Positions 2,912 to 27,964 of a stretch of 27,964 nucleotides of DNA are shown one piece after another; the first letter of the stretch is position 1, and each line of letters begins with the position of its first letter. Origin of the DNA: a virus; the IMG/VR virus record IMGVR_UViG_2866711008_000001. One strand, 5' to 3'. A program made the translations under genes and the position numbers. Under the pieces are notes generated by a model. The model was given only the letters and a program-made list of their open reading frames with translations, was not told the origin of the DNA and searched no databases.

Positions 2912-5680
2912 TCATAGCGCCGACACCGCCGGCTGCCATACGTCGACCGCGGTACCGGCCGGCCACGACCTCTGGATGCCGTTGACGCCGCGGGCTGAAA
3001 TGGTGGCGGTCTGTGGGCTGCTCGTGCCGCTGATCGCCGAGAGCGTGACCCGCTCACCGCCCACCCTGATGTCGAGCGGGAAGTCCGTCGGGTCCGTCGT
3101 CCACGGGCCGTTCTCGGTGGTCGACGCCAGCGACAGCGACGTACCCGAGCTGGTCAGGTCCGCGCCGAGCGTGGATCCGTCGGCAGCTACCCGCTGCTCG
3201 CCGTCCACGACGGCCACGTCCCACGGTGACGACGGCGCCGCATTCCAGACAATCGACCAGTCGTAGCCGTCGATCGTCTCCGTGTAGCCCTGCACCATCA
3301 CCCGGGCCGGCCCGGGAGGCAGCCACGCCGGCAGACCATCGATCGACGCCACGTCGCCGGTGTCGGAGAGCACCACCTGCCGCGTAAGGGCCTGGTCGGC
3401 GGCGAGCGTCTTCGCGGCGAGGTTGAGGCGGATACGCGGGTAGCGGGCCTCATCGACTGTGCCCAGGTGCAGCAGCCACGACGCGAGGTCGGGCAGCTGG
3501 TCGTCGGTGGCGACGTTGAGCGTCTCGGAGGTGGTGTACCGGCCGACACCGGCCGGCGGGTCCAGGACCGACAGTGGGCCGTCGAGTTGCACCGCCACCG
3601 ACGACGCCCCGTCAGGGCGCGACACGGTGATGTCGTTGCGGGTCGCGTCGTCGTCGTCTGTCGGCTCGAACGGGGCTGAGATGTGCGTGTAGTCCAGCGG
3701 GATCGGTGTCTGGTTGTACAGGCTCGTCCGGGTGCGGTAGTGCAGACCACGATGCCCCCGCGCGTCGAGCAGGATCCCACCGTCGGCGGCGGCCGCGTCG
3801 CGCAGCGCGTCGAGCAGCGGCACGATCGGCTGCGGCCCGCACGCCGCGGTGTCGTCAGGCGCACCCCAGAACGTGATCGGGATCCCCGCCTCGCCGCACA
3901 CGCGGACGATGCGCTCCCCGGCCTTCTCGCCCGCGTATGCGGTGGAGATGGCCGCGAAGTCGGCGCTGAGGAAGATCCGCTCGTTGTCGACGGCCAGGTG
4001 CGACAGCAGAGCATCCTGCAGGTCGCTGTTGCCTACCACCTCAACCCTGGTGGGGTGGCCGAGCGTGCCCGTGTACGTCCACGAAAAGGTCGAGAACGCG
4101 GGATCGCCGGCGTTGGCCACCCACGGCTGCCACGTGATCGTGTCGCCGGAACGCGACCACTCGACGTACATCATCAGCCAGTCGTCCGGAGGATTATCCG
4201 CGTTGTTGAAGTTGTGGTCCGAAACGGCGTCCCCGCCCTGGTCGTAGCCGACCCACCGGTACCCGCCGCCGGACATCTGGAAGTCCCACCGGGCCACCGT
4301 GCCGCCCGACCAGTGCACCCGCAGATAGGTTTGGTCTCCACCGGCCGGCATCTGTGCCAGCTTGATGAACACCAGCAGTGAGTACGTCGACGACCCGGGT
4401 CGTGGTGTCACGGTCGTCGTGATGGACGACGTCGCGGTCAGCTTCGCCACCGACCGGCTTCCCGGCAGCCGCCCCGATTCCTCGCCGTAGGTCACCTGAG
4501 AGGACGTGGCTGTGGTCGGCCTTGCCGTCGCCGGTGTCGGCCGGGTGGCGTCCGTCCCTTCCTCAAGCGGCAGATAGCCGGCAGGGTCGATAGACGACAG
4601 GGTGCGGCGCAGCGGAGACGTCACCGCGGTGCTCTGACTGAGCCGCCGGGTGATCCCGGCCGCGTCGACCGGCACCCACTGGTCCGTGCCCGCCAGGTTC
4701 CACCGCGACGGCCAGGACGACACCTCACCGTAGAAGCGGGCGCCCCGGTCGATGACCACGGCGCTGCTGTTGAGACTCCACGGGCGGCCCTGCGCATCGG
4801 TCAGCGACGTCTGCCCAGGCTGCATCAGCGTGAAGTCCGGCGACGCCACGAGGGTGCCGCCGATGCGCAGCTCGAAGCCGTACAGCTCACCGGCGGCCGG
4901 CGCCGCGGCGAGGCCGCCGAACGACCCGAGCTCAATGCCCGCAGTGGGGGCCTCCGCCACCGACGTCGCCCCAGCGGGACTCGAGTCCGCGCCCAGCTGC
5001 ACCCACGGACCAGCCAACGATGCCGCGGTGTAGAACCGCACCACCCCCGTGGCCAGGGTCAGCGTCGCCCGCACCGCCAGCGCCCCGCCTGCCACCGATG
5101 GCACCGGCACCAACGCCCGGCGGCTGATCCGGCCCGCGGCACTGCCATCCGGTGACCACGTCAGCCCCAGACGGCCGGCGGCGTCCACATCGATGTACCA
5201 GGCGCGCTCGGTGCCGACCGCCCAGTACCGGCCGACCAGCTCGAAGAAATCGCCGGTCGCCCAACGGACCAGCCGCACCCACATCCGTATGTCCAGGTCG
5301 CCCGAGGTGTTGAGGCTCGCGTGGGCCGGGGTGGTCACCGCCGATGGGTTCTTCGCCGGACCCGACAACGCGACCGCCCCGGCGGCGCCGAGGTCACCGA
5401 CCCGCACCCGGATCGGCGTGTTCCGCCCCAGCAGCCCGTAGTAGGGGCTGGCCGGGTTACGCGGCGAGTACCGGCCGCCAGCGTTGTTGAGGACCAGACT
5501 GCACTGGGTCAGGTCCGGCTCCCGGCCCTCGTTCGGCCGGCCGCGGGTGATGGTGATCCCGCCGCCCGAGTCGGCCACGGAATGTCGGACGTCGCCGGCG
5601 TCGAGCACGTTCACCCAGCCGAGAGTGTCGCCCAGGTACAGGTCCACCTCGGCCGCGACCTGAGTGTCGGGAAACGCCAC
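2912..5680 (-). CDS. Minor tail protein (922 aa) with a siphovirus distal-tail-protein-like N-terminus and large insertions
   Basis: GTG 5680 preceded by GAGGAGC, directly after the tape measure gene. The N-terminus MAFPDTQVAAEVDLYLGDTLGWVNVLDAGDVRHSVADSGGGITITRGRPNEG...CSLVLNNAGGRYSPRNP matches the usual Sipho_tail opening. Confidence 0.7.
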   Translation of the reverse strand: MAFPDTQVAAEVDLYLGDTLGWVNVLDAGDVRHSVADSGGGITITRGRPNEGREPDLTQCSLVLNNAGGRYSPRNPASPYYGLLGRNTPIRVRVGDLGAAGAVALSGPAKNPSAVTTPAHASLNTSGDLDIRMWVRLVRWATGDFFELVGRYWAVGTERAWYIDVDAAGRLGLTWSPDGSAAGRISRRALVPVPSVAGGALAVRATLTLATGVVRFYTAASLAGPWVQLGADSSPAGATSVAEAPTAGIELGSFGGLAAAPAAGELYGFELRIGGTLVASPDFTLMQPGQTSLTDAQGRPWSLNSSAVVIDRGARFYGEVSSWPSRWNLAGTDQWVPVDAAGITRRLSQSTAVTSPLRRTLSSIDPAGYLPLEEGTDATRPTPATARPTTATSSQVTYGEESGRLPGSRSVAKLTATSSITTTVTPRPGSSTYSLLVFIKLAQMPAGGDQTYLRVHWSGGTVARWDFQMSGGGYRWVGYDQGGDAVSDHNFNNADNPPDDWLMMYVEWSRSGDTITWQPWVANAGDPAFSTFSWTYTGTLGHPTRVEVVGNSDLQDALLSHLAVDNERIFLSADFAAISTAYAGEKAGERIVRVCGEAGIPITFWGAPDDTAACGPQPIVPLLDALRDAAAADGGILLDARGHRGLHYRTRTSLYNQTPIPLDYTHISAPFEPTDDDDATRNDITVSRPDGASSVAVQLDGPLSVLDPPAGVGRYTTSETLNVATDDQLPDLASWLLHLGTVDEARYPRIRLNLAAKTLAADQALTRQVVLSDTGDVASIDGLPAWLPPGPARVMVQGYTETIDGYDWSIVWNAAPSSPWDVAVVDGEQRVAADGSTLGADLTSSGTSLSLASTTENGPWTTDPTDFPLDIRVGGERVTLSAISGTSSPQTATISARGVNGIQRSWPAGTAVDVWQPAVSAL

Positions 5681-5681
5681 G

Positions 5682-7202
5682 TCAGCTCCTCAACACGGCG
5701 ACCGGGTCACCGCCGCGGTGCTTGATCGCGGCGCGCAGGATCTCCAGGAGCAGGTCATCGACGGACCGGCCGCTGGACTGTAGGACCAGCACTGAGCCGC
5801 CGCCGCCGGACGCGGACGGCGACTTGATCTGCTCGCCGGCCTGGAGCACGGCGAGGACGTTCTCACCGGGCCGGCCGGGCACCGTGCCGCCGCTGTGGAA
5901 CGTGGGCAGCCGCGGCGCGGAGATGCTGTTCCCGCCGACGCCGGGCACCCAGCCCGGTACCGTCCACGACAGCCGGCCCACCGTCGCGTTCCACGCCCGG
6001 GACACGGAGTTGAAAGCCGACCGGAACGGCGACGAGATCAGCCCACCGATCTTCCCGAACGCCCGACCGATCTTGCCCGGCAGGCTGATGTACCAGTTGA
6101 ACGCCGTCGTCGTGATCTTCTTGATCCAGTCCCACGCGGCCTTCACCGGCTCGCCGATCTTGCCCCAGATCGCCCCCCACAGATCTTGGAACCAGGTCGT
6201 CTGGGTCGCGATCCAGATGATCGCCCCGACCAGCGCACCGATAGCCACGATCACGATGCCGATCGGGTTCGCCGACATCGCGACGTTCCACGCCCACTGC
6301 GCGGCCGTCGCGATACCGGTAGCGGCGGCGCCAGCCAGCTGCGCGGCCTTACTCGCGGTGGTGGCGGCCGCGGACTTGATCGACGCCAGCGACACCGCGT
6401 TGTTGGCCATCGCGAGCAGGTTGAGCGTGCCGACCAGGCCGAGGGCGGCCGTGGACAGCAGCTCGATCTCCGTCCCAACCCGGGACAGCGTCGACGGGTC
6501 CGCCGCCTTCTGCGCATCGTTCAGGTTCAGCTGCGCATCCTTCGCGTCGCGATTCGCCTGAGCCATGTCCCGGCCGGCTTGCGCGGCGTCCTCGTTGGCC
6601 TGCGCCAGATCGGCCTGCGCCTGGCCGCTGTCGACCCCGGCCTGCTTCAGGTCCAGCTGCGCTTGCGCCAGGTCCTGCGCCGCCTGCCGGGCCTCGATGC
6701 TGCCCTTGCCGTGCTCCTTGACCGCGGCGTTGTAGTCCTTCTGCGCCTGCGCGGCGTCGATCGCCGCCTGCTTCTGGTCGAGCACAGCTTGTTCCGCGTC
6801 GACGCCGGCCTGCTTCGCGTCGAGCTGCGCCTGGTTGAGATCCAGCTGCGCCTGCTTCAGGTCGCCGAGGGCCTGCTCCGCGTCGAGGCCGGCCTGCTCG
6901 ACGTCGGCCAGGGCCCGGGCCTGCGCCTGCGCCCGGTCCGCGCCCCGGCTCTGGAGCGCGGCCAGCGCCGACACGGTGCCGCCGGCGTCGCCGACCGCCG
7001 CGGACATACCGGCGGCCGTCGCACCGATCCGGGCCATGCGGCCGCTGTAGACGTCCGCCGAGCGGCCGGCGTCGGTGGTCTGCTGGCTGGCCCGGGCCGC
7101 CGCGTCCCCGACGCTCTCCGTGGCTGCGCTCGCCTGCGCGGCGGCCTTGTTCAGCTTCGTCGCGTCGCCGGCGAACGTCAGCGTTACCGCGTTCCCCGCC
7201 AC
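5682..7202 (-). CDS. Tape measure protein (506 aa)
   Basis: GTG 7202 after GGAGG. Long Ala/Gln/Asp coiled-coil repeats (QAQLDLNQAQLDAKQAGVDAEQAVLDQKQAAIDAAQAQ). Central hydrophobic segment NPIGIVIVAIGALVGAIIWIATQTTWFQDLWGAIW. Located between the chaperone genes and the minor tail gene. Confidence 0.85.
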   Translation of the reverse strand: MAGNAVTLTFAGDATKLNKAAAQASAATESVGDAAARASQQTTDAGRSADVYSGRMARIGATAAGMSAAVGDAGGTVSALAALQSRGADRAQAQARALADVEQAGLDAEQALGDLKQAQLDLNQAQLDAKQAGVDAEQAVLDQKQAAIDAAQAQKDYNAAVKEHGKGSIEARQAAQDLAQAQLDLKQAGVDSGQAQADLAQANEDAAQAGRDMAQANRDAKDAQLNLNDAQKAADPSTLSRVGTEIELLSTAALGLVGTLNLLAMANNAVSLASIKSAAATTASKAAQLAGAAATGIATAAQWAWNVAMSANPIGIVIVAIGALVGAIIWIATQTTWFQDLWGAIWGKIGEPVKAAWDWIKKITTTAFNWYISLPGKIGRAFGKIGGLISSPFRSAFNSVSRAWNATVGRLSWTVPGWVPGVGGNSISAPRLPTFHSGGTVPGRPGENVLAVLQAGEQIKSPSASGGGGSVLVLQSSGRSVDDLLLEILRAAIKHRGGDPVAVLRS

Positions 7203-7203
7203 C

Positions 7204-7623
7204 TCAGTCCACCTCCAGCCCAGCCGCCCGGATCACGGTCAGCAGCCCGTCCTCCAGCGCCTTCTGCACGTCGCCGTGGCGCTCGTGGAACGCCGGGTAC
7301 ACGTACCGGCCGCCCTTCTCGAACGTCCGGTACGCAGGCCGGCCCTTCACCCGGCCCTCACCGCCGTAGTCCAGCCACGGCACGTACGGCGCCCGCGACG
7401 ACCCGGCCGACACCCGCGTCGCCGTCCGCGTCGACCGGGCCTTGACCGCGGCCTGCGCCCGGCCCGACCGGCGCGGCATCTTCCGCCGGGCCGTGTCGAC
7501 GACGATGTTCGCGGCCTCGTTGTGCGCCAGCCGCAGACCCTTCGGAGCCTCCGCGTCGATCCGGCGCAACGCCCGGTTGATCGCGTTCAGCCCCTCGATT
7601 CGGATCGGCTCGACCACCGTCAC
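7204..7623 (-). CDS. HK97 gp10-like head-tail joining or tail completion protein (139 aa), in an unusual position
   Basis: GTG 7623 preceded by GGGGAGG. MTVVEPIRIEGLNAINRALRRIDAEAPKGLRLAHNEAANIVVDTARRKMPRRSGRAQAAV...APYVPWLDYGG follows the HK97 gp10 family pattern as I remember it. Confidence 0.5.
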   Translation of the reverse strand: MTVVEPIRIEGLNAINRALRRIDAEAPKGLRLAHNEAANIVVDTARRKMPRRSGRAQAAVKARSTRTATRVSAGSSRAPYVPWLDYGGEGRVKGRPAYRTFEKGGRYVYPAFHERHGDVQKALEDGLLTVIRAAGLEVD

Positions 7624-8539: not shown

Positions 8540-8947
8540 CTATGCGCCCTTTCCTGTGATGTCGAGGTGGAACATCGCCGCCAGGTAGTCCGTGCCGGCG
8601 TAGGTGACGACGTCGAACTCCGCCGTCGCGACCCGCACCGAGTCGCAGCTGGTGTACGTGCGCGCCTCGATCGCCGCCTTGACGCTCTTCGGCCCGGACC
8701 CGTCCGCGTACTCGGCGATCGCCCGCCGCGCGGCCGGCTGCGTCGGTTTGGCGACCAGGACCAGAACCGGCCAGTCCTCGATCCGGTCCGACCCGCGCCC
8801 GTGCGTCGTGTCGTAGGTGATCGGGTCCGGAAGCGGGATCAACGCGAACGGCGGGTGGACGCGATCGACGCCCCACTCCGGCACGTTCAGGCCGTCGATC
8901 GTGCGCAGCGCGGCGCCCAGCTCGCCGGCGACGTCGTCGAGGTTCAT
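8540..8947 (-). CDS. Putative tail terminator or head-tail joining protein (135 aa)
   Basis: ATG 8947 overlaps the upstream stop (ATGA). MNLDDVAGELGAALRTIDGLNVPEWGVDRVHPPFALIPLPDPITYD... Position is between the adaptor and the major tail gene. Confidence 0.5.
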   Translation of the reverse strand: MNLDDVAGELGAALRTIDGLNVPEWGVDRVHPPFALIPLPDPITYDTTHGRGSDRIEDWPVLVLVAKPTQPAARRAIAEYADGSGPKSVKAAIEARTYTSCDSVRVATAEFDVVTYAGTDYLAAMFHLDITGKGA

Positions 8948-9555
8948 GCCACCCTCCGCCGCCGCGACAGCCCGGCAAGCGTCGTGGCCACGTCCGGGTC
9001 GAGCCGCGACAACAGCCGCATCTCCGACCCGTCCGACGGCGACCCGGCGATCCCGTACGGCGAATGCCGACGCGACGACCACCGCGACACCTGAAGCTTG
9101 CACGCCTGGATCACCTGCGCCGGGATCTCCGGCCACCCCCACAGCGCCTCGACGACCACCGGCGCCCCCGGGAAGTCCGCGAACCCGAGCCGCTCGTACG
9201 GGCGGCCACGCAGCTCCGCGTCGTCGGGCAGCAGCACCGCGCCCGAGTCGGCGTACGCGACGCCGGCGACACGCAGCCCGGTCACATCCTGGACGTCGTC
9301 GATCTCCAGCAGCCACAGCCCCGACACCACGTCGTAGACCGCCGGCCGCCGGTACGTACGGGCTTCCGGCGCGTCGACGATCCCGAACTGCCGGTTGCAC
9401 CGCTTGTCGACCGCGCGGGACGCAGCAGTGCACCACAGCGCGACGTCCGCCTCATCGACGCCCGGCGAGTACAACCAGTCGGACGCGGTCACCGCATCGA
9501 GGTAGTCACCACCCCAGGGCGCGGAGCCACCACTATCGCCAGCGGGTACAGCCAT
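8944..9555 (-). CDS. Head-to-tail adaptor / connector (gp6-like) protein (203 aa)
   Basis: ATG 9555 after GGAGAGGGGG. The pattern ...DEADVALWCTAASRAVDKRCNRQFG...RTYR...LLEIDDVQDVTGLRV...YERLGF... is typical of adaptor proteins. Confidence 0.55.
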   Translation of the reverse strand: MAVPAGDSGGSAPWGGDYLDAVTASDWLYSPGVDEADVALWCTAASRAVDKRCNRQFGIVDAPEARTYRRPAVYDVVSGLWLLEIDDVQDVTGLRVAGVAYADSGAVLLPDDAELRGRPYERLGFADFPGAPVVVEALWGWPEIPAQVIQACKLQVSRWSSRRHSPYGIAGSPSDGSEMRLLSRLDPDVATTLAGLSRRRRVA

Positions 9556-9569
9556 CGGTGCCCCCTCTC

Positions 9570-10979
9570 CTAGACGGCGACTTCGACGAGCGTGAGCCGG
9601 CCAACCCAGGAAATGGTCTTTCCGGCCTCACCGACGACCAGGAAGTGCAGGGTTCCAATGGACGATCCGGCGACCGAAAGGGTCCACGGGGCAGCGGCGG
9701 ATGTTTCCGCCAGCACGGTGATGACGGGCGTGCCCACTACTGCGCTGTTTCCGGAGGCGGGGCGGCGCATCATGCCCTCCACGCGCCAGCTCTTGCAGTC
9801 CGCTGTCGCACCCTCGCGGGCCACCAGCAGCAAGGAAAACGCCACCGTCGAGCTGGGCAGCAGGTCGTACGCCGTGCCGCCCCCGGCGATGCCGAGGATC
9901 GTCGCGGTGGCGGTCGTGGTCTGCCGCGCCAGCGTGATCACGCTGGTCTGTGCGTCCCCGTCCTGAGCGAACCGGTGATTGGCCATCGCGTTCTGCCCGT
10001 AGACGCGGGCCCGCGCGTACCGGCCGAACGCCGTGGAGTAGTTGCCCTCCGCCTTGTTGTTCTGCCCGATCGCCAGAGCAGACGCACCGCTGACCGTGTT
10101 CGCCGATCCGAGCGCCACCGCGCCCGCCGCAGACACGGTGTTGTTCTGCCCGGCCGTGAAGCTGTACTGCCCGGAGGCCGTGTTGTTGCCGCCACCGGCG
10201 ATCGTCGCCTGCGTCGCACTGGCCGTGTTGAACGTCCCACCAGAGATCGTGACGAAGTCACCACCGGTGATGCGGTGATCCGACCCGCCGGAGATCGTGG
10301 AGTGCGTCGCCGCCGCACTGATCGCGCTGTGATCCGACCACATCACGGACTTGAGACCGGCCGCCACGTTGTCGTAGCCGCCCACCGTGCAGTGATTCGC
10401 CGCGGTGCCGCGCAGGTCAGCGGGGTCTGCCGGGACGTTGCTGCTGGTCGTGCCGACGTTGGCGATGATCCCGTTGCCGATCACGTTCTCTCTGCCGGGC
10501 GTGCCACCTCCGACGATCGTCGAATCGATCACGTCGTCGGCGATCGCGTTGCCGGACCCACCACCCAAAATCGAACTGCGAACCGCGCCGCCCGCCTCAT
10601 CGCGGATACGCACGACCGTCCCCGACACGGACCCCGCAACGGCAGCCGCCAGCTGGTCAATCCGACCATCAGCAGCCGGGTACAGCGGCACCATCGGCCC
10701 GTCCGGGCCCACGCGGGTGTACACCACGGGGTCGGAGCCGTCGGGGAAGCGGAACAGCTCGGCCTCGAAAGTCGAGCCGATCGTCACGTACGGGATCCCG
10801 TCGTCCGTCTCCGGCAGCGATGACACCCCGTCAGCGGCGAGCACATCCGCCGGCTCGGTGGCGTCCTCATCGGCGTAGAGAGGCACGACCGTCCCGGCGG
10901 GAACGAACTGCCCCCGCCGGGCGCCGCGGGTGTAGTAGAACACCCGCTGGTCCTGAGCCGGACCGATCAGCCGTGCCAC
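9570..10979 (-). CDS. Beta-helix / YadA-head-like (Hep_Hag-type) repeat protein (469 aa); fibre or spike-like
   Basis: ORF track 9570..10979. Central Gly/Ser/Asn/Ala repeats: TISGGSDHRITGGDFVTISGGTFNTASATQATIAGGGNNTASGQYSFTAGQNNTVSAAGAVALGSANTVSGASALAIGQNNKAEGNYSTAFG. Confidence 0.6.
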   Translation of the reverse strand: MARLIGPAQDQRVFYYTRGARRGQFVPAGTVVPLYADEDATEPADVLAADGVSSLPETDDGIPYVTIGSTFEAELFRFPDGSDPVVYTRVGPDGPMVPLYPAADGRIDQLAAAVAGSVSGTVVRIRDEAGGAVRSSILGGGSGNAIADDVIDSTIVGGGTPGRENVIGNGIIANVGTTSSNVPADPADLRGTAANHCTVGGYDNVAAGLKSVMWSDHSAISAAATHSTISGGSDHRITGGDFVTISGGTFNTASATQATIAGGGNNTASGQYSFTAGQNNTVSAAGAVALGSANTVSGASALAIGQNNKAEGNYSTAFGRYARARVYGQNAMANHRFAQDGDAQTSVITLARQTTTATATILGIAGGGTAYDLLPSSTVAFSLLLVAREGATADCKSWRVEGMMRRPASGNSAVVGTPVITVLAETSAAAPWTLSVAGSSIGTLHFLVVGEAGKTISWVGRLTLVEVAV

Positions 10980-11399: not shown

Positions 11400-14300
11400 T
11401 CAGGCAGTGGTGTAGATGACCTGGCGGACACCGTCGATGCGCGTGTTTGCCAGCGCCTTGTAGCCCCAGATCCCCAGGTCCACGAACGCGACCCGGTACT
11501 CGAACTGGAGACGCTGCGGCGCGCTGGCCCAGCCGTGCACGTCGTCCGGGTTGAACAGCCAGGAGTTCTTCGCCCCGGCCCCGGCCGCGCCGAGCGCCCA
11601 CGACGGGACACCGGTCACGCCACCCAGGTCGATCGTGCCCCACCGCGGCGCGGCAACGCCGGTCGCGTTCTGCGGGCCGATGATCGGGTACAGCCGCCGG
11701 CCGGTCGAGTCGACCGCACCGACGAACGCCCGGTACAGGTTCTGGTGCACGGCGAACGCCCGGAACCGGTGACCACCGCGGGCGAACTGAAGATCCGCGT
11801 TGGCCGCGGACCAGGCCGCGTCGAGCACGTCGTCCACGACCGGCGGGGTGCCGGCCGCCGAACCGAGGTCGATGTCCGCCGCGGCGGTCAGCGTGTTGAG
11901 GAACGTGCCGGCGGCCGTCTCCAGCGCCTCGAACCACTCACGGTTCATCTGCCGCCAGATCAGCCCCGACAGCTGCGGCGAACCGCCCTGCTCCCACGCC
12001 TCCCGGGTGACCTCGACCTTGCCGGACAGGGCCGTCGGGGTGATGGTCTGGCTGGTCGCCTTGTACGTGCCGCCGGTCGGCTCGGTGCCCTCGGTGTGGT
12101 CGCCCACCAGGTCACCCGCGCTGGTGTTGTCGAACTTCGGCACCACGAACGGCGTGGCGTCGGTCAGGGTGCCCCGGTTGATGAAGTCCCACAGCGGGGT
12201 CGCGTAGTCGAGCTGGTCAACGAACATGTCCGGCCGCTGCCGTGCCGGGTTGAGCGCCGCCGCGTCCGCCTTGTCCACGTCGAACTGCGCCTCACCGAGC
12301 CGCGGCTTGTTGGCCATGGCCCCGTCGAACTGGCTGCGCATGAACTTGGTCGCCCGCTCCATCGCCTCGCCGTCACCGCGCGACGCGGCGATCAGGTCGG
12401 TCGAGAAGTCGTACTGGGCGCCCCGGGTGAGGTTGCCACCCCGGTCGAACCGGTACGGCAGCTCCTCCCGCACCTGCGACGCGGCCACGGTGCGGCGGGT
12501 CGGGTCGACCGCCTGCCGCTGCTCCGCCGGCTCGTTCCGGGCCGGGATCGCCTGCGGCACACCGAGCAGCGCACCCAGCTGACCGGCCTTGATCAGGCTG
12601 TCGACCTGCTCGGCGGACAGCGTCAGCGCACCGGCCGGCGCCGCCGGCTGCTCCGGCCGCTGCGGCTGCTGCGCGGCCACGATCGCCTGGATCGCGCCCG
12701 GCCGGGACAGGAGAGCGGTCAGCTGGTCCTCGCTGAGGTTCACGCCGGTGGCCGGCTGGTTGGCCGGCTGCTGGTTGTTGGAAGCGGTGCACGCCACGCC
12801 CTCCGCGTGGACCTGCCCGCAGGTGGCGCAGTGCATTCCTGCTCCAATCTCTCGGTTTGCTCGTACCTTGGTCACGCGCGCGTCATCGAACGCGGGCATC
12901 GGGGTGCTGCTGGTCTCGCGCCAGGTCGCCCGCTTGACGTCGTAAACCTGGTCCTTCTCGTTCCACTCGACGTCCCCGGACTCCGGGTCGAGAGCGAAGT
13001 CGACGCCGACGGAGAGCCCGTCGTACAGGCCGTGCTCCGCGTCGTAGAGCAGCTGGTCGCGCTCCAACTTCGCCGGGCTGCCCTCGGGACCGTCGAGCAC
13101 CTTCAACGTCACCACCGGGCCGCGCCGGGTTTCCTTCACCGACGTGTGGATCCCGACCGGCGTGTAGTGGTCCTTCAGGTGCTTGATCCGGGACAGGTTC
13201 GCGTCGTCGTACTCCAGCGACCCCGGCAGGAACCGGAACGCCAACCCGTACTTGCGGGCGACCTTGTTGTACGGAACGGCCAGACCGGTGATCGTGCGCC
13301 GCTCGACGTCGACCTTGGCCGGCTCCGCCGCCCCGGCGAAGTCGGCGACGTCGAACGTCATCGCCGGCTTGCCGCCGTCGTCGGCGCTGGCCGTGAGCCG
13401 AACCACCGCCAGCCGCGACGCCTCAGCGCCCTCGGTCTGCTCCTGGTCCTCGCCGTCCCCCTCGGCCGGCGGGGCGGACGCAGCCGCGGCGGGCTTCGGC
13501 GCCGGGCCGGACAGGCCGGCCGCCGCGCGAATCTCGTCAGCGTCCATCACGCCCATGTCCTTCAAGCCCTTCCAGTACGTCACCTGCGCGCCGGGGTCCG
13601 GCTTCAGGTAGTCCGTCAGGTCGAACCGCACCGCGTGCCCGCGCCGGGTCACGTCGCCCATGGACAGCCGCTGCGTGATCGCCTGCATGTACGGCGCGTA
13701 CGTCTCGTTGATCTTCGACGTGCGCCGGTCCTGCGCGTTGAAGTACGTCCGCGACGTCGTGCTCACGCCCAGGTCCTCGGGATCCACACCGAGCCCGTTC
13801 GCGATCTCCAGCGTCACCTGCCGTTGCAGCTCCACCAGCTGGATCTCCTGCGGCGACGGGCTGTTCACGTCGACCCGCTTCACGGTGCGCGGGATCCAGC
13901 CGGTGCCGCCGGCCTTCCGCGCCGCCTTCCACTCCGCCAGGAACCCGTCGATCTCGTCGTCTTCCATCGGGTCGACGTCCGGGTCATCGCCGTCGGTGAA
14001 GTAGTCCGTCGGCCTCGGGTTGTCGGCATACACGGCGGCCAGCTGGTCCAGCAGCAGCGCCCGCCGGATCGCCCGCGCGTTCGCCACCAGCAGCCCCGGG
14101 TTCGGGGAGTCGAACCGGATCAGCCGGTCCGCCGGCGTGGCCACCCCGTCAACCCACACGACCCTCACGCCGCGGGCGTCGACCCCGCTGGGGAACGGGT
14201 TCACCGCGCCGGTCGGCGGGTCCAGGCTCACCGTGCGCACGTCCAGGTGCCGCGCGGCGATCGGGAAGCCAGCGAAGTCCTGCGCGGTGATCAGCCACCA

Positions 14301-14657
14301 GGAGATACCGTCGAACGCGAGATCCTCGATCGTCTGCGCCAGCGTGACGACGTTGGCGACGTCGGGGTCGATCTGCTCCAGGAACGGGGACCGGACGATG
14401 TCCAGCCCCTTGTACTGCACCAGCGGCAGCGTCGCGATCGAGCAGAGCGAGTTACGCCCCCGCTGGACGGCCGCCACCGACAGCGCCTGCTCCCGCGACA
14501 CGCGGCCCGGCACGCCGGCGTTCATCGCCAGGAACACCTGGTCGATCGGCCGAGGCGGCGAGTCGAACTGCGCGCCCGGCTGCTCGTCGAGCCCGAGGGG
14601 CCGCGGTAGGGACAGAAGCTCTCGCATCTGCTGACCTACCGCGGCGAGCCACCCCAT
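11400..14657 (-). CDS. Portal / prohead serine protease (S78) / scaffold-plus-HK97-fold major capsid fusion ORF (1085 aa)
   Basis: One uninterrupted frame.
- Residues ~1-380 are portal-like (..QALSVAAVQRGRNSLCSIATLPL.., DEIDGFLAEWKAARKAGGTGWIP).
- Residues 433-598 are protease-like (RRTITGLAVPYNKVA.., HLKDHYTPVGI, YDGLSVGVDF, WRETSSTPMPAFDDARV).
- Residues 608-1085 are capsid-like (..ALNPARQRPDMFVDQLDYATPLWDFI...VTREAWEQGG...LYPIIGPQNATG...). Confidence 0.75.
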   Translation of the reverse strand: MGWLAAVGQQMRELLSLPRPLGLDEQPGAQFDSPPRPIDQVFLAMNAGVPGRVSREQALSVAAVQRGRNSLCSIATLPLVQYKGLDIVRSPFLEQIDPDVANVVTLAQTIEDLAFDGISWWLITAQDFAGFPIAARHLDVRTVSLDPPTGAVNPFPSGVDARGVRVVWVDGVATPADRLIRFDSPNPGLLVANARAIRRALLLDQLAAVYADNPRPTDYFTDGDDPDVDPMEDDEIDGFLAEWKAARKAGGTGWIPRTVKRVDVNSPSPQEIQLVELQRQVTLEIANGLGVDPEDLGVSTTSRTYFNAQDRRTSKINETYAPYMQAITQRLSMGDVTRRGHAVRFDLTDYLKPDPGAQVTYWKGLKDMGVMDADEIRAAAGLSGPAPKPAAAASAPPAEGDGEDQEQTEGAEASRLAVVRLTASADDGGKPAMTFDVADFAGAAEPAKVDVERRTITGLAVPYNKVARKYGLAFRFLPGSLEYDDANLSRIKHLKDHYTPVGIHTSVKETRRGPVVTLKVLDGPEGSPAKLERDQLLYDAEHGLYDGLSVGVDFALDPESGDVEWNEKDQVYDVKRATWRETSSTPMPAFDDARVTKVRANREIGAGMHCATCGQVHAEGVACTASNNQQPANQPATGVNLSEDQLTALLSRPGAIQAIVAAQQPQRPEQPAAPAGALTLSAEQVDSLIKAGQLGALLGVPQAIPARNEPAEQRQAVDPTRRTVAASQVREELPYRFDRGGNLTRGAQYDFSTDLIAASRGDGEAMERATKFMRSQFDGAMANKPRLGEAQFDVDKADAAALNPARQRPDMFVDQLDYATPLWDFINRGTLTDATPFVVPKFDNTSAGDLVGDHTEGTEPTGGTYKATSQTITPTALSGKVEVTREAWEQGGSPQLSGLIWRQMNREWFEALETAAGTFLNTLTAAADIDLGSAAGTPPVVDDVLDAAWSAANADLQFARGGHRFRAFAVHQNLYRAFVGAVDSTGRRLYPIIGPQNATGVAAPRWGTIDLGGVTGVPSWALGAAGAGAKNSWLFNPDDVHGWASAPQRLQFEYRVAFVDLGIWGYKALANTRIDGVRQVIYTTA
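12834..12845 (-). promoter_or_regulatory. Internal Shine-Dalgarno sequence plus ATG that could start a separate 478-aa scaffold/capsid product
   Basis: Minus strand reads GGAGCAGGA ATG (ATG = 12836-12834, residue M608 of the fusion). The ATG follows 13 codons (V595-G607), most of them poor in G/C at the third position. Confidence 0.5.
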
Positions 14658-14726: not shown

Positions 14727-16301
14727 TCACGCCATCCGAGATCGGCGAGACACCTTCCGAACCTTCGGCAACGTCCGCGCCAGATGCACCGCACCCGCCA
14801 CCGCGTACACCGCGTCAACCTGGCCGGCCTTCCGGGTGAACACCCACCCGCCGCCCTGCGTCAGCTTCTCCGCCTTCGCCACCTGAGCGTCGAGCATCTC
14901 CTGCCCGGAGTGCACCACCGTCCGCGCGGTGACCTCCTTCGCGAAACCCATCGCGGTCGCCGTCACCTCACCGCGGATCCCCTCGACCTGCACCCCGCGC
15001 GGCGGCCAGCCCCGGGCGCCGTCCTTCCGCCGGTCGGCCACCTTCGCCGCCACCGCCGCCGCCGGCCCCGACGGGAACCAACCGAGCACCTTCGGCCGGA
15101 CCCGCTCCGCCCACGCCGGCAGCTCCCGCTCCAGCTGCGACGCCGCATCCGGCCCGGACCACTCGTGCACCGTCTCCACCCGCACCCGCTCGTCGTCGAG
15201 CACCACCGCCACGGCGAGAGTGGCGTGCTGCCCGTCGAGCGACAGGTCCACGCACGCCGCCAGCCGCTGCCGCAGCTCGGTGTCCACCGGCGCCGGCACC
15301 CGACAGTCCCGCCACGCCGCCGGATCGATCGCCAGGTTCACCGAGTCGGTCTGCTGGATGCACATCACCTCGGTCTTGAACGTGCGCAGCAGATCCCCGT
15401 CCCCAGCCTCAGCCGACGCCGCCGCCGCCCGCGCGTCGTTCAGCAACCGCACCGCCGACTTGCCGCCGGCCAAGCCCAGCGTCGGATTCGACTGCGCCAG
15501 CGCCCGCACATCCGTCGGGTCCGCGTCCTCCGGCGCCGACCACTCGAACAGGCCCAGCGACGGATCACCCTCGCCCGACTCGATGAACGCCAACGCGGCG
15601 GCCCGCAGGTCGTTGAACGGCACACCCTTCGGATCCGGCGTCGTCAACGCCCAGTACTGGGCATCCTCGAACGCATCCATCGAGTAATACGCGGCCCCGT
15701 ACGCGTCGTAGTTGTACTGCTTCGCGAACTCGTCCGCGATCACCCGCCGGTTCGACATCGACCGGCCACCCTCAGCGTTGGACGCCGCGATCCCGTAGTG
15801 GCAGTCATCCGCCGACCACCACTCCTCCTCGCCGGTCGTCTTCCGGATCGCCCGCCGGTGCGGGTTCTCCGGCAGCCGATCCGGCAGCCGCCGCACCGCC
15901 AGGTTGAACGCCGACATCCACGGCTTCTTGGCGTACTTCGCCAGCGTGCTGGTGCCGAGAATGCTCGGGTGCTTCTCCTCGAAGATCCAGAACAGGGTCA
16001 GGTCCTCCACCTCGCGGGTCTTCCCCGACTGACGGCCCACCACCACGACCAGGCGCCGGAACCGCGGGATCCCGTCCGGCCGCAGCTCCCCGGCGTGGAT
16101 GGACAACCACCGCTGCCACGGCCACTTCGGACGGCCCAGCCGCCGCTCGGCAAACTCGACCTCCCGGAACCCGTACGACGTCTCCGGCGTCAGCGCGCAC
16201 CCGCAGCCACAGGGCCCAGGCGGGCCGGTCACCAGCGGCGGAGTCCACAGCCGCGGCGTGGTCGACCCGACCACCTCAACCTCACCGAGCGTCACCGTCA
16301 C
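14727..16301 (-). CDS. Terminase large subunit (524 aa)
   Basis: GTG 16301 after GGAGG. Walker A-like VVVGRQSGKTRE. C-terminal nuclease-type region (ACVDLSLDGQHATLAVAVV...). Located directly upstream of the portal domain. Confidence 0.85.
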   Translation of the reverse strand: MTVTLGEVEVVGSTTPRLWTPPLVTGPPGPCGCGCALTPETSYGFREVEFAERRLGRPKWPWQRWLSIHAGELRPDGIPRFRRLVVVVGRQSGKTREVEDLTLFWIFEEKHPSILGTSTLAKYAKKPWMSAFNLAVRRLPDRLPENPHRRAIRKTTGEEEWWSADDCHYGIAASNAEGGRSMSNRRVIADEFAKQYNYDAYGAAYYSMDAFEDAQYWALTTPDPKGVPFNDLRAAALAFIESGEGDPSLGLFEWSAPEDADPTDVRALAQSNPTLGLAGGKSAVRLLNDARAAAASAEAGDGDLLRTFKTEVMCIQQTDSVNLAIDPAAWRDCRVPAPVDTELRQRLAACVDLSLDGQHATLAVAVVLDDERVRVETVHEWSGPDAASQLERELPAWAERVRPKVLGWFPSGPAAAVAAKVADRRKDGARGWPPRGVQVEGIRGEVTATAMGFAKEVTARTVVHSGQEMLDAQVAKAEKLTQGGGWVFTRKAGQVDAVYAVAGAVHLARTLPKVRKVSRRSRMA

Positions 16302-16392: not shown

Positions 16393-17097
16393 TCACGCGG
16401 CCGACTCTCTGCTTCGATCGAGGTAACTGGCCAGCGCCTGCGCGATCTTCGGGTCGTCTCTCACCAAGCCAGCTGCGATGTTGCAGGAGTGGCAGATCAG
16501 TCCGCGTACGCACTGGCCACACGAGTGGGTGCTGGCGGGGCAGCAGTCATGGTCGTGGTCGACCACGAGTCGCGCTGTGTTCTTGCCGTGACCCGACGAC
16601 CTCACCCGCTTCAGCAGGTCGACCCCGCAGATCTCGCAGCCCGGTTCGGTGAGCAGTTGGCGTGCGCGTTCGTGTGGCACGCGGTGGGACTTGAGCCGGT
16701 CGACTACGTGCTTGATGGGGGCGGTGCAGTTATCGCAGATGTAGGGCCACACGCTTCCTGGCCTTCTGCTGTGCGGGGCTTCCTTGCCGCACCAGGCGCA
16801 CCGGTGTTGCGTTCTGCGGTAGGGGTGGTAGCCCGCGGCCTTGCATTCGGTCGAGCAGTACTTGGTGCCTGCACCGTCCACGCTCATGGTGAAGGTGTTG
16901 CCGCACTGCTGGCAGATGCGTTCGCGGTTGCTGCATGCCCTGCCTGCGCAGTACATGCCCCATTCCTGTGCGGTGGTGATCCACCGTGCTGGCCTGGCAC
17001 ACATCCGGCACCGGGGTGGCGCGTCCTCCGCGGGCTGTGCCTGAGCCTGGCTGGGCTGGGTGGCCAGTTCGAGGATGGATAGCTGCTCGTTCACCAT
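16393..17097 (-). CDS. Endonuclease VII domain protein with N-terminal zinc ribbons (234 aa)
   Basis: C-terminus CEICGVDLLKR...ARLVVDHDHDCCPASTHSCGQCVRGLICHSCNIAAGLVRDDP matches the Endonuclease_7 signature (CxxC...VDHDH...RGLLCxxCN). The N-terminus has several CxxC pairs. Start is ATG 17097 or the in-frame GTG 17094 (GTGA overlap). Confidence 0.75.
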   Translation of the reverse strand: MVNEQLSILELATQPSQAQAQPAEDAPPRCRMCARPARWITTAQEWGMYCAGRACSNRERICQQCGNTFTMSVDGAGTKYCSTECKAAGYHPYRRTQHRCAWCGKEAPHSRRPGSVWPYICDNCTAPIKHVVDRLKSHRVPHERARQLLTEPGCEICGVDLLKRVRSSGHGKNTARLVVDHDHDCCPASTHSCGQCVRGLICHSCNIAAGLVRDDPKIAQALASYLDRSRESAA

Positions 17098-17390
17098 CTG
17101 GTCACCGCCTTGTTCGGAGGATCTTCGTGGTCTGCCGGATTTCCGATGAACAGGTTGCAGTTGGTGCAGGAGGCGACCATGTGGCGCGGGTCGTCGCCGG
17201 TTCTGGCTTTGCCGTGGGTGTGGTGGACGCAGTCTTGGGTGTCGGTGCAGGTGTGGGTGGTGGTGCGGTTGGCTTGGTCGCACCATCCGTCGCGGTGTGC
17301 TCGGCATCCTTGGCCTGCGTCGCGGAGTAGGACGGCTGCTCGGATGGTGCGCCATGCTCTGGTGCTGCCGCGTCCCCAGCTCTTGCTCAT
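17091..17390 (-). CDS. HNH endonuclease (99 aa)
   Basis: ATGA overlap start at 17390. STRAWRTIRAAVLLRDAGQGCRAHRDGWC...VHHTHGKARTGDDPRHMVASCTNCN fits the phage HNH pattern (WRxxRxxVLxRD.G.C....C...HH......N....CxxCN). Confidence 0.75.
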   Translation of the reverse strand: MSKSWGRGSTRAWRTIRAAVLLRDAGQGCRAHRDGWCDQANRTTTHTCTDTQDCVHHTHGKARTGDDPRHMVASCTNCNLFIGNPADHEDPPNKAVTRW

Positions 17391-17587
17391 CGGGGCGGCA
17401 GCCAGGTGTGGACGTCGATGGGCTGTGCGGGGTGGGAGCAGCCGCGTAGGTGGCGGAGTTCCAGGCCGACGAGCTGCTCCCGCTTGAAGGTGGCGACCAG
17501 GGTGGGCCGGCGGCAGGTGCACTGCGTCGGGTCGTTGAGCATGGGCTCGACGATGCGGCGGCGGGTGCGGGTGCGGGTGGTGGTCAC
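17387..17587 (-). CDS. Hypothetical protein (66 aa)
   Basis: GTGA-coupled start at 17587. VTTTRTRTRRRIVEPMLNDPTQCTCRRPTLVATFKREQLVGLELRHLRGCSHPAQPIDVHTWLPPR. An alternative ATG lies at codon 16. Confidence 0.45.
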   Translation of the reverse strand: MTTTRTRTRRRIVEPMLNDPTQCTCRRPTLVATFKREQLVGLELRHLRGCSHPAQPIDVHTWLPPR

Positions 17588-18459
17588 GGCTTCTCCTGTC
17601 GGCGGATGGCGGCGGCGGCGAGTTCGGCGCCGCGTCGGGATCGGGTGGTCATGTCGGGGTCGTGGAGGCAGAGCCGTCCGTCGCGTTGGCCGTGCTGGTC
17701 GCAGAGCGGGCAGGCGTCGATGGCGGCGCGTACGGCGGCGGCTTGCTGGCGGGCGCGCTCCGACTGGATGCGGGCGAGGATCGCGGCCTGGTCTCGGTCC
17801 CACCGTTCGCGTGCCTTGCGGGCGTCGGCGCACTTGCCGCAGGGGGGCGGGTTGGGGTGGTCGCGGTGGTCTTCGCATTGGTTGGAGGGGGGGCTCTGAG
17901 TCGGTTGGGTCGAGGTGCTTTCGGGTTCGTCGTCAGCTCGCGCGCGCGTCCCTTCCCTTCCCTTCCCTTCCTTTTCCCTTCCCTTCCCACCCGGAACGTT
18001 CCGGGAGTCCTCCGGGAGTGTTCCGGGAGCATTCCGGGAAGGGCTGTTGACCTGCGAAGACGTGCCGTTTTCGACGTTGCGAGGCTCGTTCGGCTGCTCG
18101 TCGCCCGATTCATCGACGGACGTGCCCGCAGCGGGGCCCGGAATGCGGCTCGGGGTCGGCTTCGAGATCTTCTGGTGCTCGTGCCAGTTGACGACTTCGA
18201 GGTACCGGACGCCGGCGACCTCGTACCGGATGATCCGGCCGTTCGCGGCGAGCACAGCAAGGTCGTCTTCGATGTCCGCAAGGCTGACGTCGTCGAGAGG
18301 CCACACGTCGCCCTTGATCAACCGGGCGTTGTCCTTCAGGCGGCCCTGGTCGTCCGCGTGGGTCCACAGTCCAACCCACGTGAGTCGGGCGCGGAACGGC
18401 AGCACCGACACGTCTTCGGACTTGAAGAAGCTCGGCTTGATCGTGCGGATCCGGGGCAT
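17584..18459 (-). CDS. Putative DNA-binding replication organiser / initiator-like protein (291 aa)
   Basis: ATG 18459 after GAGGAAG, sharing one base with the previous stop. The N-terminus MPRIRTIKPSFFKSEDVSVLPFRARLTWVGLWTHADDQGRL is a recurrent opening of phage and plasmid replication-associated DNA-binding proteins. It is followed by a low-complexity linker and a C-terminal Cys cluster (PPCGKCADA...AIDACPLCDQHGQRDGRLCLH). Confidence 0.45.
   Translation of the reverse strand: MPRIRTIKPSFFKSEDVSVLPFRARLTWVGLWTHADDQGRLKDNARLIKGDVWPLDDVSLADIEDDLAVLAANGRIIRYEVAGVRYLEVVNWHEHQKISKPTPSRIPGPAAGTSVDESGDEQPNEPRNVENGTSSQVNSPSRNAPGTLPEDSRNVPGGKGREKEGKGREGTRARADDEPESTSTQPTQSPPSNQCEDHRDHPNPPPCGKCADARKARERWDRDQAAILARIQSERARQQAAAVRAAIDACPLCDQHGQRDGRLCLHDPDMTTRSRRGAELAAAAIRRQEKP
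17949..17988. repeat. 40-nt pure pyrimidine (plus strand) / purine (coding strand) tract built from (CCCTT)n
   Basis: tcccttcccttcccttcccttccttttcccttcccttccc read directly. It is a near-mirror repeat and immediately flanks the palindrome and iterons. Confidence 0.85.
17997..18040. repeat. Four tandem 11-bp iterons, consensus nnTTCCGGGAG; the first overlaps a 14-bp perfect palindrome at 17991-18004
   Basis: The four units are cgttccgggag, tcctccgggag, tgttccgggag and cattccgggaa, starting at 17997, 18008, 18019 and 18030. ccggaacgttccgg (17991-18004) is its own reverse complement. Confidence 0.85.
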
Positions 18460-18734
18460 CAGGTCTTCCTCTTCTTGCGGGCTGGTGCGGGGCCTGGGGC
18501 GGCCGTTTCGGACTTGCAGGTGACGCAGCGGGTCGGGTACCAGCGGCGGGCGCCGCCGTATGGGGGGCCGTTGGGGAACAGGTAGCCGGCGCAGCTGCGG
18601 CAGGTGCCGACGGGTTGGCGGCGGGCTATGGCGTCCATCCAGGGGGCGGCGTTGATGCTGTGGGTGCCGGGGAGGCGGTAGCGGGGCCAGATGCCGCCGC
18701 GGCCGTCGTGGATGAGCGGGGCCTGGTGGGTCAC
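18459..18734 (-). CDS. Small C4 zinc-ribbon-like protein (91 aa), hypothetical
   Basis: GTGA-coupled start at 18734. ...VGTCRSCAGYLFPNGPPYGGARRWYPTRCVTCKSE...KKRKT. The longer ORF 18459..18968 is an extension across the upstream gene. Confidence 0.55.
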   Translation of the reverse strand: MTHQAPLIHDGRGGIWPRYRLPGTHSINAAPWMDAIARRQPVGTCRSCAGYLFPNGPPYGGARRWYPTRCVTCKSETAAPGPAPARKKRKT

Positions 18735-19033
18735 GGGTGCGCCCCTCGGCCAGCGGCCGTGCAGCGCGGGCAGATGCCGGCCGACAGAGGCGGATGGGTG
18801 GGGTCCGGCACGCTGGACGGCTTGCCGCCGACGTCGCGCCACTCGTGGCCGCCGAACGGACGGGTGCACAGCGGGCAGGGCAGCCAGAAGAACCCTGCGC
18901 GGTGTGCCCACCAGCGGTGCACGGCGCGGAGTCGGTAGGGGACAAGGACGCGGGGCCACTCCAGCCATGCTGGGTAGGAGCGGGCGAGCTTCTTCCCGGG
19001 TCGGATGGTGAGGCGGACCTCGTAGCGGGTCAT
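18731..19033 (-). CDS. Small C4 zinc-ribbon-like protein (100 aa), hypothetical
   Basis: ATGA-coupled start at 19033. MTRYEVRLTIRPGKKLARSYPAWLEWPRVLVPYRLRAVHRWWAHRAGFFWLPCPLCTRPFGGHEW...GICPRCTAAG. Confidence 0.55.
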   Translation of the reverse strand: MTRYEVRLTIRPGKKLARSYPAWLEWPRVLVPYRLRAVHRWWAHRAGFFWLPCPLCTRPFGGHEWRDVGGKPSSVPDPTHPPLSAGICPRCTAAGRGAHP

Positions 19034-24575: not shown

Positions 24576-24754
24576 GAACTGCTCCTGTCGGGGCGATAGA
24601 CGGTCACGTGCTCGACGAGGACGCGGACGGTGTGGCCGGTCTGGTGGACGTGCAGCCGGGCCCGCTCCCTCGTTGCGTCCGGTCGGAGGCGGTCACACTG
24701 CTCGCACTCCACCGACGGCGGGTTGGTCAGGCGGCTGATGTCGAGACGGCTCAC
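24572..24754 (-). CDS. Small hypothetical protein with a CxxC ... HxH motif (60 aa)
   Basis: GTGA overlaps at both ends. VSRLDISRLTNPPSVECEQCDRLRPDATRERARLHVHQTGHTVRVLVEHVTVYRPDRSSS. It is the tail of the spurious 304-aa ORF 24572..25486. Confidence 0.45.
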   Translation of the reverse strand: MSRLDISRLTNPPSVECEQCDRLRPDATRERARLHVHQTGHTVRVLVEHVTVYRPDRSSS

Positions 24755-27837: not shown

Positions 27838-27964
27838 CCGCGTCTTGCTTCGGTGGCCCGTGCCGGCGACGTCGACGAAGCCGGCACGGGCTCCAGCCAG
27901 ACGGCCGGAGACTCAGGGCCGCAGCTCGTCCATGGCCTGCCAGAGGCGGGCCCGGTCGTGCTGC
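27838..27964. repeat. Terminal overlap, copy 2 (identical to 1..127)
   Basis: Exact 127-nt identity with the window start. The sequence preceding it (..gacagaggcggt) differs from anything before base 1, so the repeat is exactly 127 nt. Confidence 0.95.

Follow-up and report, generated by a model that had tools for sequence, protein, structure and literature searches.

We analysed a 27,964-bp stretch of viral DNA (IMG/VR record IMGVR_UViG_2866711008_000001; the whole stretch is called the window below), in which a single minus-strand gene encodes a predicted portal, prohead protease, scaffold-like region and major capsid protein in one stop-free frame. Comparison with relatives points to a second, nested translation start within this fusion gene, positioned to yield the scaffold–capsid part as a separate protein. 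The features of the locus are as follows.

11400..14657, minus strand: portal–protease–scaffold–capsid open reading frame (ORF), 1085 codons, ATG start, TGA stop at 11400–11402
13503..14510, minus strand: HK97-type portal domain, amino acids (aa) ~50–385, assigned by Pfam, PHROG, PDB profile and Foldseek
13362..13502, minus strand: portal–protease linker, aa 386–432, Ala/Pro/Glu/Gly-rich, predicted disordered, predicted local distance difference test score (pLDDT) 29–42
12858..13361, minus strand: S78-type prohead serine protease domain, aa 433–600, pLDDT 85–95
12837..12851, minus strand: in-frame Shine-Dalgarno (SD) region, codons 603–607, GAG ATT GGA GCA GGA, rare A/T-ending codons
12834..12836, minus strand: candidate internal start codon ATG (Met608) of the nested scaffold–capsid product, 478 aa, 12836→11403
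12456..12836, minus strand: scaffold-like (delta-domain-like) region, aa 608–734, from AlphaFold secondary structure, low pLDDT
12789..12830, minus strand: CxxC-x3-H-x5-C motif CATCGQVHAEGVAC, aa 610–623, N-terminus of the nested product
11403..12455, minus strand: HK97-fold major capsid domain, aa 735–1085, assigned by Foldseek and phrog_2263, pLDDT mostly 85–97

The initial annotation, made from the DNA letters, had claimed an uninterrupted 1085-codon minus-strand frame. We found that frame, and its translation agrees with the strings quoted in that annotation; the NCBI annotation of the same gene is a 1075-aa version that starts at Met11. G+C content at the three codon positions (GC1/GC2/GC3) is 0.70/0.49/0.94, and GC3 is the highest codon position in all 30-codon windows of the ORF, both junctions included, so that both linkers are read as coding. 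The portal–protease linker, with GC3 of 0.90–1.00, is thus real coding sequence, as had been proposed. The window has 71% G+C, and long ORFs are expected by chance in such DNA; one of 1024 aa lies opposite the fusion gene (11535..14609, plus strand). Because codon-position GC marks the minus strand as the coding one, this plus-strand ORF is a shadow ORF typical of 71% G+C DNA.

Profile searches placed matches to PF04860 (portal), PF04586 (protease) and Phage_capsid in the same frame, in the three blocks first recognized by eye and with boundaries that had been drawn correctly to within a few residues. A full-length AlphaFold model of the 1085-aa protein (mean pLDDT 75.7) has three confident domains (aa 50–385, 433–587 and 735–1085), separated by disordered segments at aa 391–428 and 588–608 and a low-confidence region of short helices at 608–730. 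For the portal part, Pfam Phage_portal PF04860 matched aa 90–380 across profile positions 35–320 of 321 (E = 5.6e-15; 55.8 bits against a cut-off of 39.1, passing the gathering score) and was matched in 40 of 41 family members; the PHROG portal family phrog_12 matched aa 104–431 (E = 7e-18), and TIGR01537 (portal) gave a partial match under its cut-off. A family profile searched against the PDB matched 3kdr (E = 1.7e-15), and a Foldseek search with the portal part of the model retrieved the HK97-family portal 3kdr_A (TM 0.81, E = 1.5e-18) as well as the HK97 in-situ portals 8cez and 8fql. On these matches the modelled domain, with pLDDT mostly 80–97, has the portal fold (wing, stem, clip and crown), and its C-terminal crown helices end at about aa 379.

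In the window, Pfam Peptidase_S78 (PF04586) matched aa 453–598 just under its cut-off (E = 1.6e-3; 19 bits against 21), phrog_80 matched with E = 4.5e-7, and TIGR01543 matched under its cut-off; among the 41 family members, 23 matched Peptidase_S78 at E < 1e-3, the best at 5.6e-13. His497 (13167–13169) and Ser549 (13011–13013, in a GLSVG motif) are invariant in alignments of 118 and 41 sequences and, by analogy, form the putative catalytic pair of the embedded protease. The C-terminal motif of the domain, FDDARV (12873–12890), is invariant as well.

Beyond the protease, the scaffold-like region is predicted to consist of short helices between disordered Pro/Ala/Gln-rich stretches. Its length varies among relatives (median 109 aa, counted from the internal start to a PYRFD motif), and we liken it to the 103-residue scaffold domain of HK97 (PMC10275583). 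The CxxC-x3-H-x5-C motif near its N-terminus, modelled as a small β-hairpin, is present in 37 of 70 family sequences, the remainder starting with an acidic MPDEQE-type N-terminus; it resembles a small zinc knuckle and may bind zinc. In the capsid part, Pfam Phage_capsid matched weakly (aa 806–893, E = 0.02), Phage_capsid_4 matched in 2 of 41 family members, and the 'major head protein' family phrog_2263 matched aa 438–1084 over profile positions 23–545 of 551 (E = 6.2e-34). An AlphaFold model of aa 608–1085 (mean pLDDT 78.8) had HK97 prohead I as its top Foldseek match (8fqk_A, E = 7e-10, probability 1.00) and also matched HK97 prohead II and mature head (E up to 1e-8), with 2frp_G, 1ohg_A and others among its hits. 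On these models, the C-terminal part has the HK97 major capsid fold.

A search of 5.8 billion proteins returned 1147 matches to the fusion protein. The best 120 of these are all 971–1095 aa long with 50–100% identity, and clustering at 50% identity gave ~67 distinct clusters of ≥900 aa among the best 150. The homologues come from Micromonospora, Salinispora, Plantactinospora, Actinoplanes, Streptomyces and many metagenomes. We compared 141 loci, 61 from GTDB genomes and 80 of the 373 matching IMG/VR contigs. At 117 of these loci, spanning ~30–100% identity, portal, protease and capsid lie in one stop-free frame; the hosts include Micromonosporaceae, Pseudonocardiaceae, Kribbellaceae, Nocardioidaceae, Nakamurella, Dermatophilaceae and even metagenome-assembled genomes of Acidimicrobiia. 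The portal–protease linker takes 30 distinct lengths among 70 relatives and the spacer between protease and capsid start takes several, all in frame.

Nine loci, mainly from Nocardioides and Nostocoides, have a separate portal gene followed by a fused protease–capsid gene. In one locus of this type, L025, which lies deep inside the fused clade and has fused nearest relatives, in-frame stops (4806–4886) interrupt the portal–protease linker. The reverse arrangement, a portal–protease fusion with an unfused capsid gene, is genuine in L044 (3436–3899). There the capsid ORF opens at 3497 and is shifted to the +1 frame relative to portal and protease, whose own ORF stops 95 nt past this point. At a further locus (L030) frameshifts have visibly degraded the fusion gene. 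On a neighbour-joining tree built from the protease–capsid part, the fused state is placed at the root with at least four fusion or fission changes; in this clade it is dominant and probably ancestral. The triple fusion claimed by the initial annotation is therefore real, and it is conserved; it is not obligatory, since close relatives occur in both split arrangements.

The candidate start at Met608 is preceded by GGAGCAGGA, built of rare A-ending codons; the junction codons read GTA CGA GCA AAC CGA GAG ATT GGA GCA GGA ATG, with the SD (GGAG…AGGA) 3–8 nt ahead of the start in the window. Each alignment column of 111 unique fused ORFs was searched for start codons with an upstream anti-SD duplex of ≤−7 kcal/mol. 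At the Met608 column, 89 of 91 sequences have a start codon (80 of them ATG) and 86 of 91 have an SD at this threshold. Among 1018 well-occupied columns it is the sole conserved combination of start and SD, the runner-up reaching 25%, and its mean duplex energy is −9.9 kcal/mol against −3.3 kcal/mol overall. The 20 sequences that aligned elsewhere mostly have the same signal 16–25 codons past FDDARV; five of them have no FDDARV anchor, and one (L047) has no strong site.

Codon usage and spacing at this site add to the comparison. Family GC3 at the SD codons is 0.16–0.33, against 0.885 overall. When sequences are anchored at the start, positions −12 to −7 form a purine-rich, GGAGG-like core with A at ~60% at two third-codon positions, 87% of the starts are ATG, and SD and start lie 4–8 nt apart. 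Because the tetrapeptides encoded at the SD vary freely (KESG, GRSG, GGPQ, RGTA and others), the SD is conserved at the nucleotide rather than the protein level. Split relatives with a separate portal gene retain the internal SD and start, and in L044 the same position has an SD of −16 kcal/mol and an ATG that opens the capsid ORF in its other frame. Internal initiation for the capsid part, which had been raised as one option and which falls where the scaffold/capsid block had been drawn to begin, is thus strongly supported by comparative sequence evidence: a conserved translation start at Met608 would make a 478-aa scaffold–capsid protein.

The start of the portal is weak by comparison. In its column, 80 of 104 sequences have a start codon and 4 of 104 an SD. 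SD energies in the window are −1.1 kcal/mol for Met1, −6.9 for Met11 and −8.7 for Met608, with −12.9 for the terminase and −13.8 for the tape measure gene, and in 32 of 33 family sequences even the best N-terminal candidate has a weaker SD than the internal site (Wilcoxon p = 7e-7). The column scan found no conserved independent protease start in the window or in most members. Met433 was rejected as a protease start (start codon in 14 of 107 sequences, SD in 0 of 107), and the runner-up column, Met368, was judged coincidental: it lies in the C-terminal crown helices of the portal and follows a conserved W-K-G tripeptide whose codons, TGG AAG GG, mimic an SD.

We propose, with a probability of roughly 0.7, that this is a nested gene that makes a scarce, self-cleaved portal–protease–scaffold–capsid polyprotein and an abundant scaffold–capsid protein from the internal start. 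By the sequence, ribosomes entering at the weak, SD-less portal start (Met1 or Met11) must continue to the capsid stop and make the 1085-aa polyprotein, and initiation at Met608 would give a counterpart of HK97 gp5 with its delta domain. If Met608 is used far more than the portal start, capsid subunits would be made in the hundreds needed per particle, and the long form would provide few copies of portal and protease, as many of one as of the other. The S78 domain would then cut the linkers, predicted to be disordered and thus accessible, and the scaffold region at prohead maturation, freeing mature portal and capsid and destroying the scaffold. Self-cleavage by the embedded protease, also suggested earlier, is plausible because its catalytic-type His and Ser are invariant. 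The C-terminal crown of HK97-like portals points into the capsid, and the prohead interior also houses the protease and the N-terminal scaffold of the capsid subunits. Because the domain order fits this topology, the long form could be built into the portal vertex, bringing the protease along. The strict 1:1:1 output that a single frame seemed to imply does not follow on this proposal, as the nested start would decouple capsid output from that of portal and protease.

Several observations weigh against this proposal. The fusion is strongly maintained but dispensable, given at least four changes of state, the linker stops of L025 and the unfused capsid gene of L044. In the window taken by itself, SD-like energies of ≤−8 kcal/mol occur at 65 of 1079 in-frame positions; since such strings are common in this ORF, the case for the internal start rests on comparative conservation. 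About a quarter of members have an SD and a GTG or ATG in the portal–protease linker (GAGGAGG-like strings, in a column near window aa 411; bearers include L122, L093, L043, L027, L123, L134, L059 and L024), a site absent from the window. This may serve as a third nested start, for a protease–capsid form that lacks the portal, in which case the set of products may vary between members, although Glu-rich linker codons (GAGGAG) alone could yield SD-like strings. No recurring cleavage motif was found at the expected domain boundaries in 50 sequences: a 'VAAS'-like motif considered for three boundaries was rejected, as it is conserved only at the protease C-terminus, where 39 of 50 sequences have it; the portal–protease linker has it in 8 of 50 and the boundary ahead of the capsid domain in 2 of 50. 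We infer initiation at the internal start, the product ratio and cleavage, and assume twelve protease copies per particle.

Two alternatives would remove the nested gene altogether. The ORF could stem from an error of assembly or sequencing, or belong to a decaying prophage in which stops were lost, and the frameshifts of L030 are an example of such decay among relatives; we give this almost no weight, as the same architecture recurs in hundreds of independent assemblies, genomes and metagenomes, GC3 is high throughout with invariant catalytic residues, and the element assembles into a complete circular genome whose packaging and tail module is intact. Alternatively, the gene could encode a strict 1:1:1 polyprotein, with the purine-rich codons 603–607 a pause site or a coincidence and surplus portal and protease degraded. 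The abundance of SD-like strings in this G-rich ORF would suit coincidence. However, the start recurs at a fixed spacing of 4–8 nt in ~95% of members and in a unique column, the rare A-ending codons are specific to the SD site, the element is retained where the capsid gene occupies another frame (L044), and a strict polyprotein would waste ~20–35 portal equivalents for each one used. We consider it highly improbable.

The other alternatives concern what the covalent linkage is for. It may be a neutral or merely economical read-through, in which junctions were lost in a tiny genome and the polyprotein is cut at once, with only co-regulation gained. One indel would suffice to fuse the 4-nt overlapping junctions between portal and protease–capsid genes seen in the cultured phages Maneater (3771–3774) and Maggie (3704–3707), each of the fused and split arrangements is found in nature, the linkers are disordered and variable, and small-genome actinophages commonly fuse head genes (PMC7302621). 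A neutral fusion should often break by linker frameshifts, yet 117 of 141 loci keep one frame; we regard read-through as a serious possibility, if one we lean against, and it would still need the internal capsid start, differing from the nested-gene proposal only on tether function. The opposite possibility is that the tether is structural, twelve linked portal–protease–scaffold–capsid chains forming a shell nucleus and a maturation checkpoint. The domain order would place portal crown, protease and scaffold all inside the prohead; in HK97 the scaffold, an N-terminal, inward-pointing domain of the capsid protein, forms towers to which 10 of 12 portal subunits are bound, and nucleation of assembly by the portal is considered likely (PMC10275583). 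With no conserved independent protease start in the window or in most members, protease would be made only attached to a portal, the frame has been kept through many linker indels, and the fused state is dominant and probably ancestral. Against this, the fusion was lost at least four times with the module kept, and such recurrent natural fissions argue against an essential tether; the linker between portal and protease is not only long and disordered but also poorly conserved; capsid subunits tethered in a 12-fold ring do not match a 5-fold vertex; and the quarter of members with a linker start may make a portal-free protease–capsid form. We think a structural tether unlikely on balance. It is similarly doubtful that only portal-containing procapsids acquire protease, with the fusion selected for assembly fidelity and not merely expression. 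To suppose that the covalent chain serves as assembly nucleus or checkpoint, and that the same nested-start logic may also run in the fusions of Microbacterium cluster EE, Arthrobacter cluster AN and Curtobacterium phage Penoan, is a speculative extension that we hold only tentatively.

The window begins and ends with the same 127 bases (1–127 and 27838–27964), pointing to a circular or terminally redundant assembly, and we read the element as a complete genome of ~27,837 bp, from a small Micromonospora siphophage of the HK97-like kind. The same 127-bp overlap occurs in three fusion-bearing IMG/VR contigs (L070, 17,601 bp; L106, 17,733 bp; L130, 16,795 bp), which are probably complete genomes too, so one capsid family seems to be used for both ~17-kb and ~28-kb genomes. 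The other recognized genes, assigned by profile scans, are as follows.

24751–25620, minus strand: RecE-like exonuclease
17584–18945, minus strand: replication initiator
16393–17355, minus strand: HNH/EndoVII endonuclease
14727–16301, minus strand: large terminase (phrog_9, E = 1.8e-47; SD −12.9)
9570–10979, minus strand: 469-aa fibre-like protein with YadA-head and β-roll repeat Pfam matches
8540–9436, minus strand: tail terminator
7204–7623, minus strand: Neck1
5682–7202, minus strand: short tape measure protein, 506 aa, with a lysin-like domain
2912–5680, minus strand: 922-aa tail protein

The large terminase gene lies directly upstream of the fusion gene, with a 69-nt gap to the portal ATG. 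The gene for the 469-aa fibre-like protein is in an unusual position just downstream of the capsid, with a 53-aa ORF between them; its Pfam matches have E ≈ 3–5e-6, YadA_head above and LbR_Ice_bind below the gathering score, and the protein could be a head fibre, a decoration protein or a divergent major tail protein. Residues 252–369 of the tape measure protein match phrog_971 ('endolysin', E = 6e-24). Pfam, PHROG and NCBIfam scans recognized no major tail protein in the window and no integrase among the ORFs scanned, and found no recognizable function for most of the 19–28 kb region. Relatives also lie inside chromosomes of 5–8.7 Mb, which suggests that the group is temperate or at least often integrated. 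Two separate fused-gene loci occur in one assembly each of Kribbella jiaozuonensis (L020 and L061) and Micromonospora mirobrigensis (L011 and L036), suggesting that some hosts carry two related elements.

How a tailed-phage capsid acquires a single portal and the correct dose of protease are long-standing assembly questions that are usually studied with weakly interacting separate proteins. The fusion family is a natural construct that physically links portal, protease, scaffold and capsid, and its split variants, with either the portal or the capsid unlinked, are natural controls. All this is found in genomes of only 17–28 kb, and it opens both protease targeting and portal-nucleated assembly to direct tests. 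The family also bears on annotation. Hundreds of ~1000-aa entries called only 'phage portal protein' or 'prohead protease' conceal a major capsid gene, and the nested capsid start is unannotated, apparently also in cultured phages of clusters EE and AN. Because gene and start go unannotated, capsid-based virus detection, classification and proteomic searches will mis-handle these genomes.

Full-text literature searches turned up no portal–protease–capsid fusion or polyprotein, in line with the initial annotation, which knew of none; as far as we could find, the nested portal–protease–scaffold–capsid gene is undescribed. The 'polyprotein' of PMC7689252 was rejected as a precedent, being a DNA polymerase. 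Among 50,697 deposited phage genomes, no hit covered ≥80% of the 1085-aa protein; a DNA search found nothing near-identical in cultured phages or plasmids, and a protein search of plasmids gave one weak match, to the protease only. A possible counterpart is the 1201-aa BFVD entry A0A6J5S481 ('phage portal protein, HK97', from an uncultured Caudovirales phage), which aligned structurally with the full-length model over 1018 columns at 14% identity; distant lineages thus probably have a similar layout, and this protein may be an independent portal–protease–capsid fusion.

The closest known genes are the protease–scaffold–capsid fusions described as common in small-genome actinophages with a separate portal gene (PMC7302621, PMC5513430); such fusions also occur in archaeal proviruses (PMC6563490). 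The small-actinophage groups, which fall in phrog_2263, are Microbacterium cluster EE, Arthrobacter AN, Gordonia CW/DM and Rhodococcus RRH1. Their protease–scaffold–capsid part is homologous to aa 438–1084 of the fusion protein (phrog_2263, E = 6e-34), and tblastn matched the fusion protein to EE-cluster genes annotated 'major capsid and protease fusion protein'. The genome plan is also shared: compact, with terminase, portal, protease/capsid and a short tail module in that order, and the genomes of many relatives are ~15–17 kb. The difference lies in the portal, which is a separate gene in Emperor, Maneater, Maggie, SallySpecial and Penoan, usually with a 4-nt overlap with the next gene, whereas here it is fused through a ~47-aa disordered linker. 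The cultured fusion genes considered are as follows.

L143:3771-5357: Microbacterium phage Maneater gp5
L144:3704-5287: Arthrobacter phage Maggie gp7
L146:2962-4527: Curtobacterium phage Penoan
L142:5562-7421: Gordonia phage Emperor gp10 (best SD and ATG at Met121)
L145:2512-4419: Gordonia phage SallySpecial gp08 (best SD and ATG at Met134)

In Maneater, Maggie and Penoan, the best SD and ATG fall at an equivalent post-protease position (Met166, Met160 and Met160, respectively), with energies of −9.2 to −9.8 kcal/mol, 9–13 codons past the end of a PAF/PAY-x-x-A-x-V motif. The internal capsid start is unannotated in the four cultured-phage records inspected and goes unmentioned in the passages of PMC7302621 and PMC5513430 located by term searches; a nested start may thus be a general, unannotated trait of many small-actinophage 'fusions'. 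Emperor and SallySpecial were rejected as models for it: they have no post-protease SD and start, and their best SD and ATG come before the protease domain. For these two phages, either the annotated start is too far upstream or the protein would carry a membrane-associated N-terminal extension. A hydrophobic helix lies within the first ~120 residues of Emperor gp10 as annotated.

Lambda C/Nu3 and herpesvirus UL26/UL26.5 are analogous nested protease/scaffold genes. The classical in-frame internal scaffold start is that of the Mu protease gene, and one has been proposed for PaMx73 gene 27; the nested arrangement is believed to direct the protease to the procapsid and to fix the stoichiometry (PMC4378225). 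In Mu I/Z, as in lambda C/Nu3 and UL26/UL26.5, a long protease product and a shorter, abundant one share frame and C-terminus. The short product of the Mu I/Z type begins at an internal SD and start, as proposed at Met608, where an internal in-frame start with a ribosome-binding site is conserved among relatives. In the Mu, lambda and herpesvirus genes, however, the shared part is scaffold only, with capsid and portal separate; here scaffold and capsid would be shared and the portal would stand on the long form. Fusions to the portal itself are represented by portal–MuF proteins, which occur alongside MuF–protease fusions in actinophage clusters AK, EA3/5/8, EB and EG (PMC5513430, PMC7302621). 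They indicate that the portal C-terminus tolerates another internal head protein, although there the partner is the MuF minor capsid protein and neither protease nor capsid is chained to the portal. HK97 has the same three folds in the same gene order (gp3, gp4 and gp5), with an HNH endonuclease and terminase upstream and a scaffold that is the N-terminal domain of the capsid protein; it differs in keeping three separate genes, and identity to the HK97 structures is 12–23%. Judged by sequence, the gene described here combines known designs, the protease–capsid fusion and the nested start, and adds the portal.

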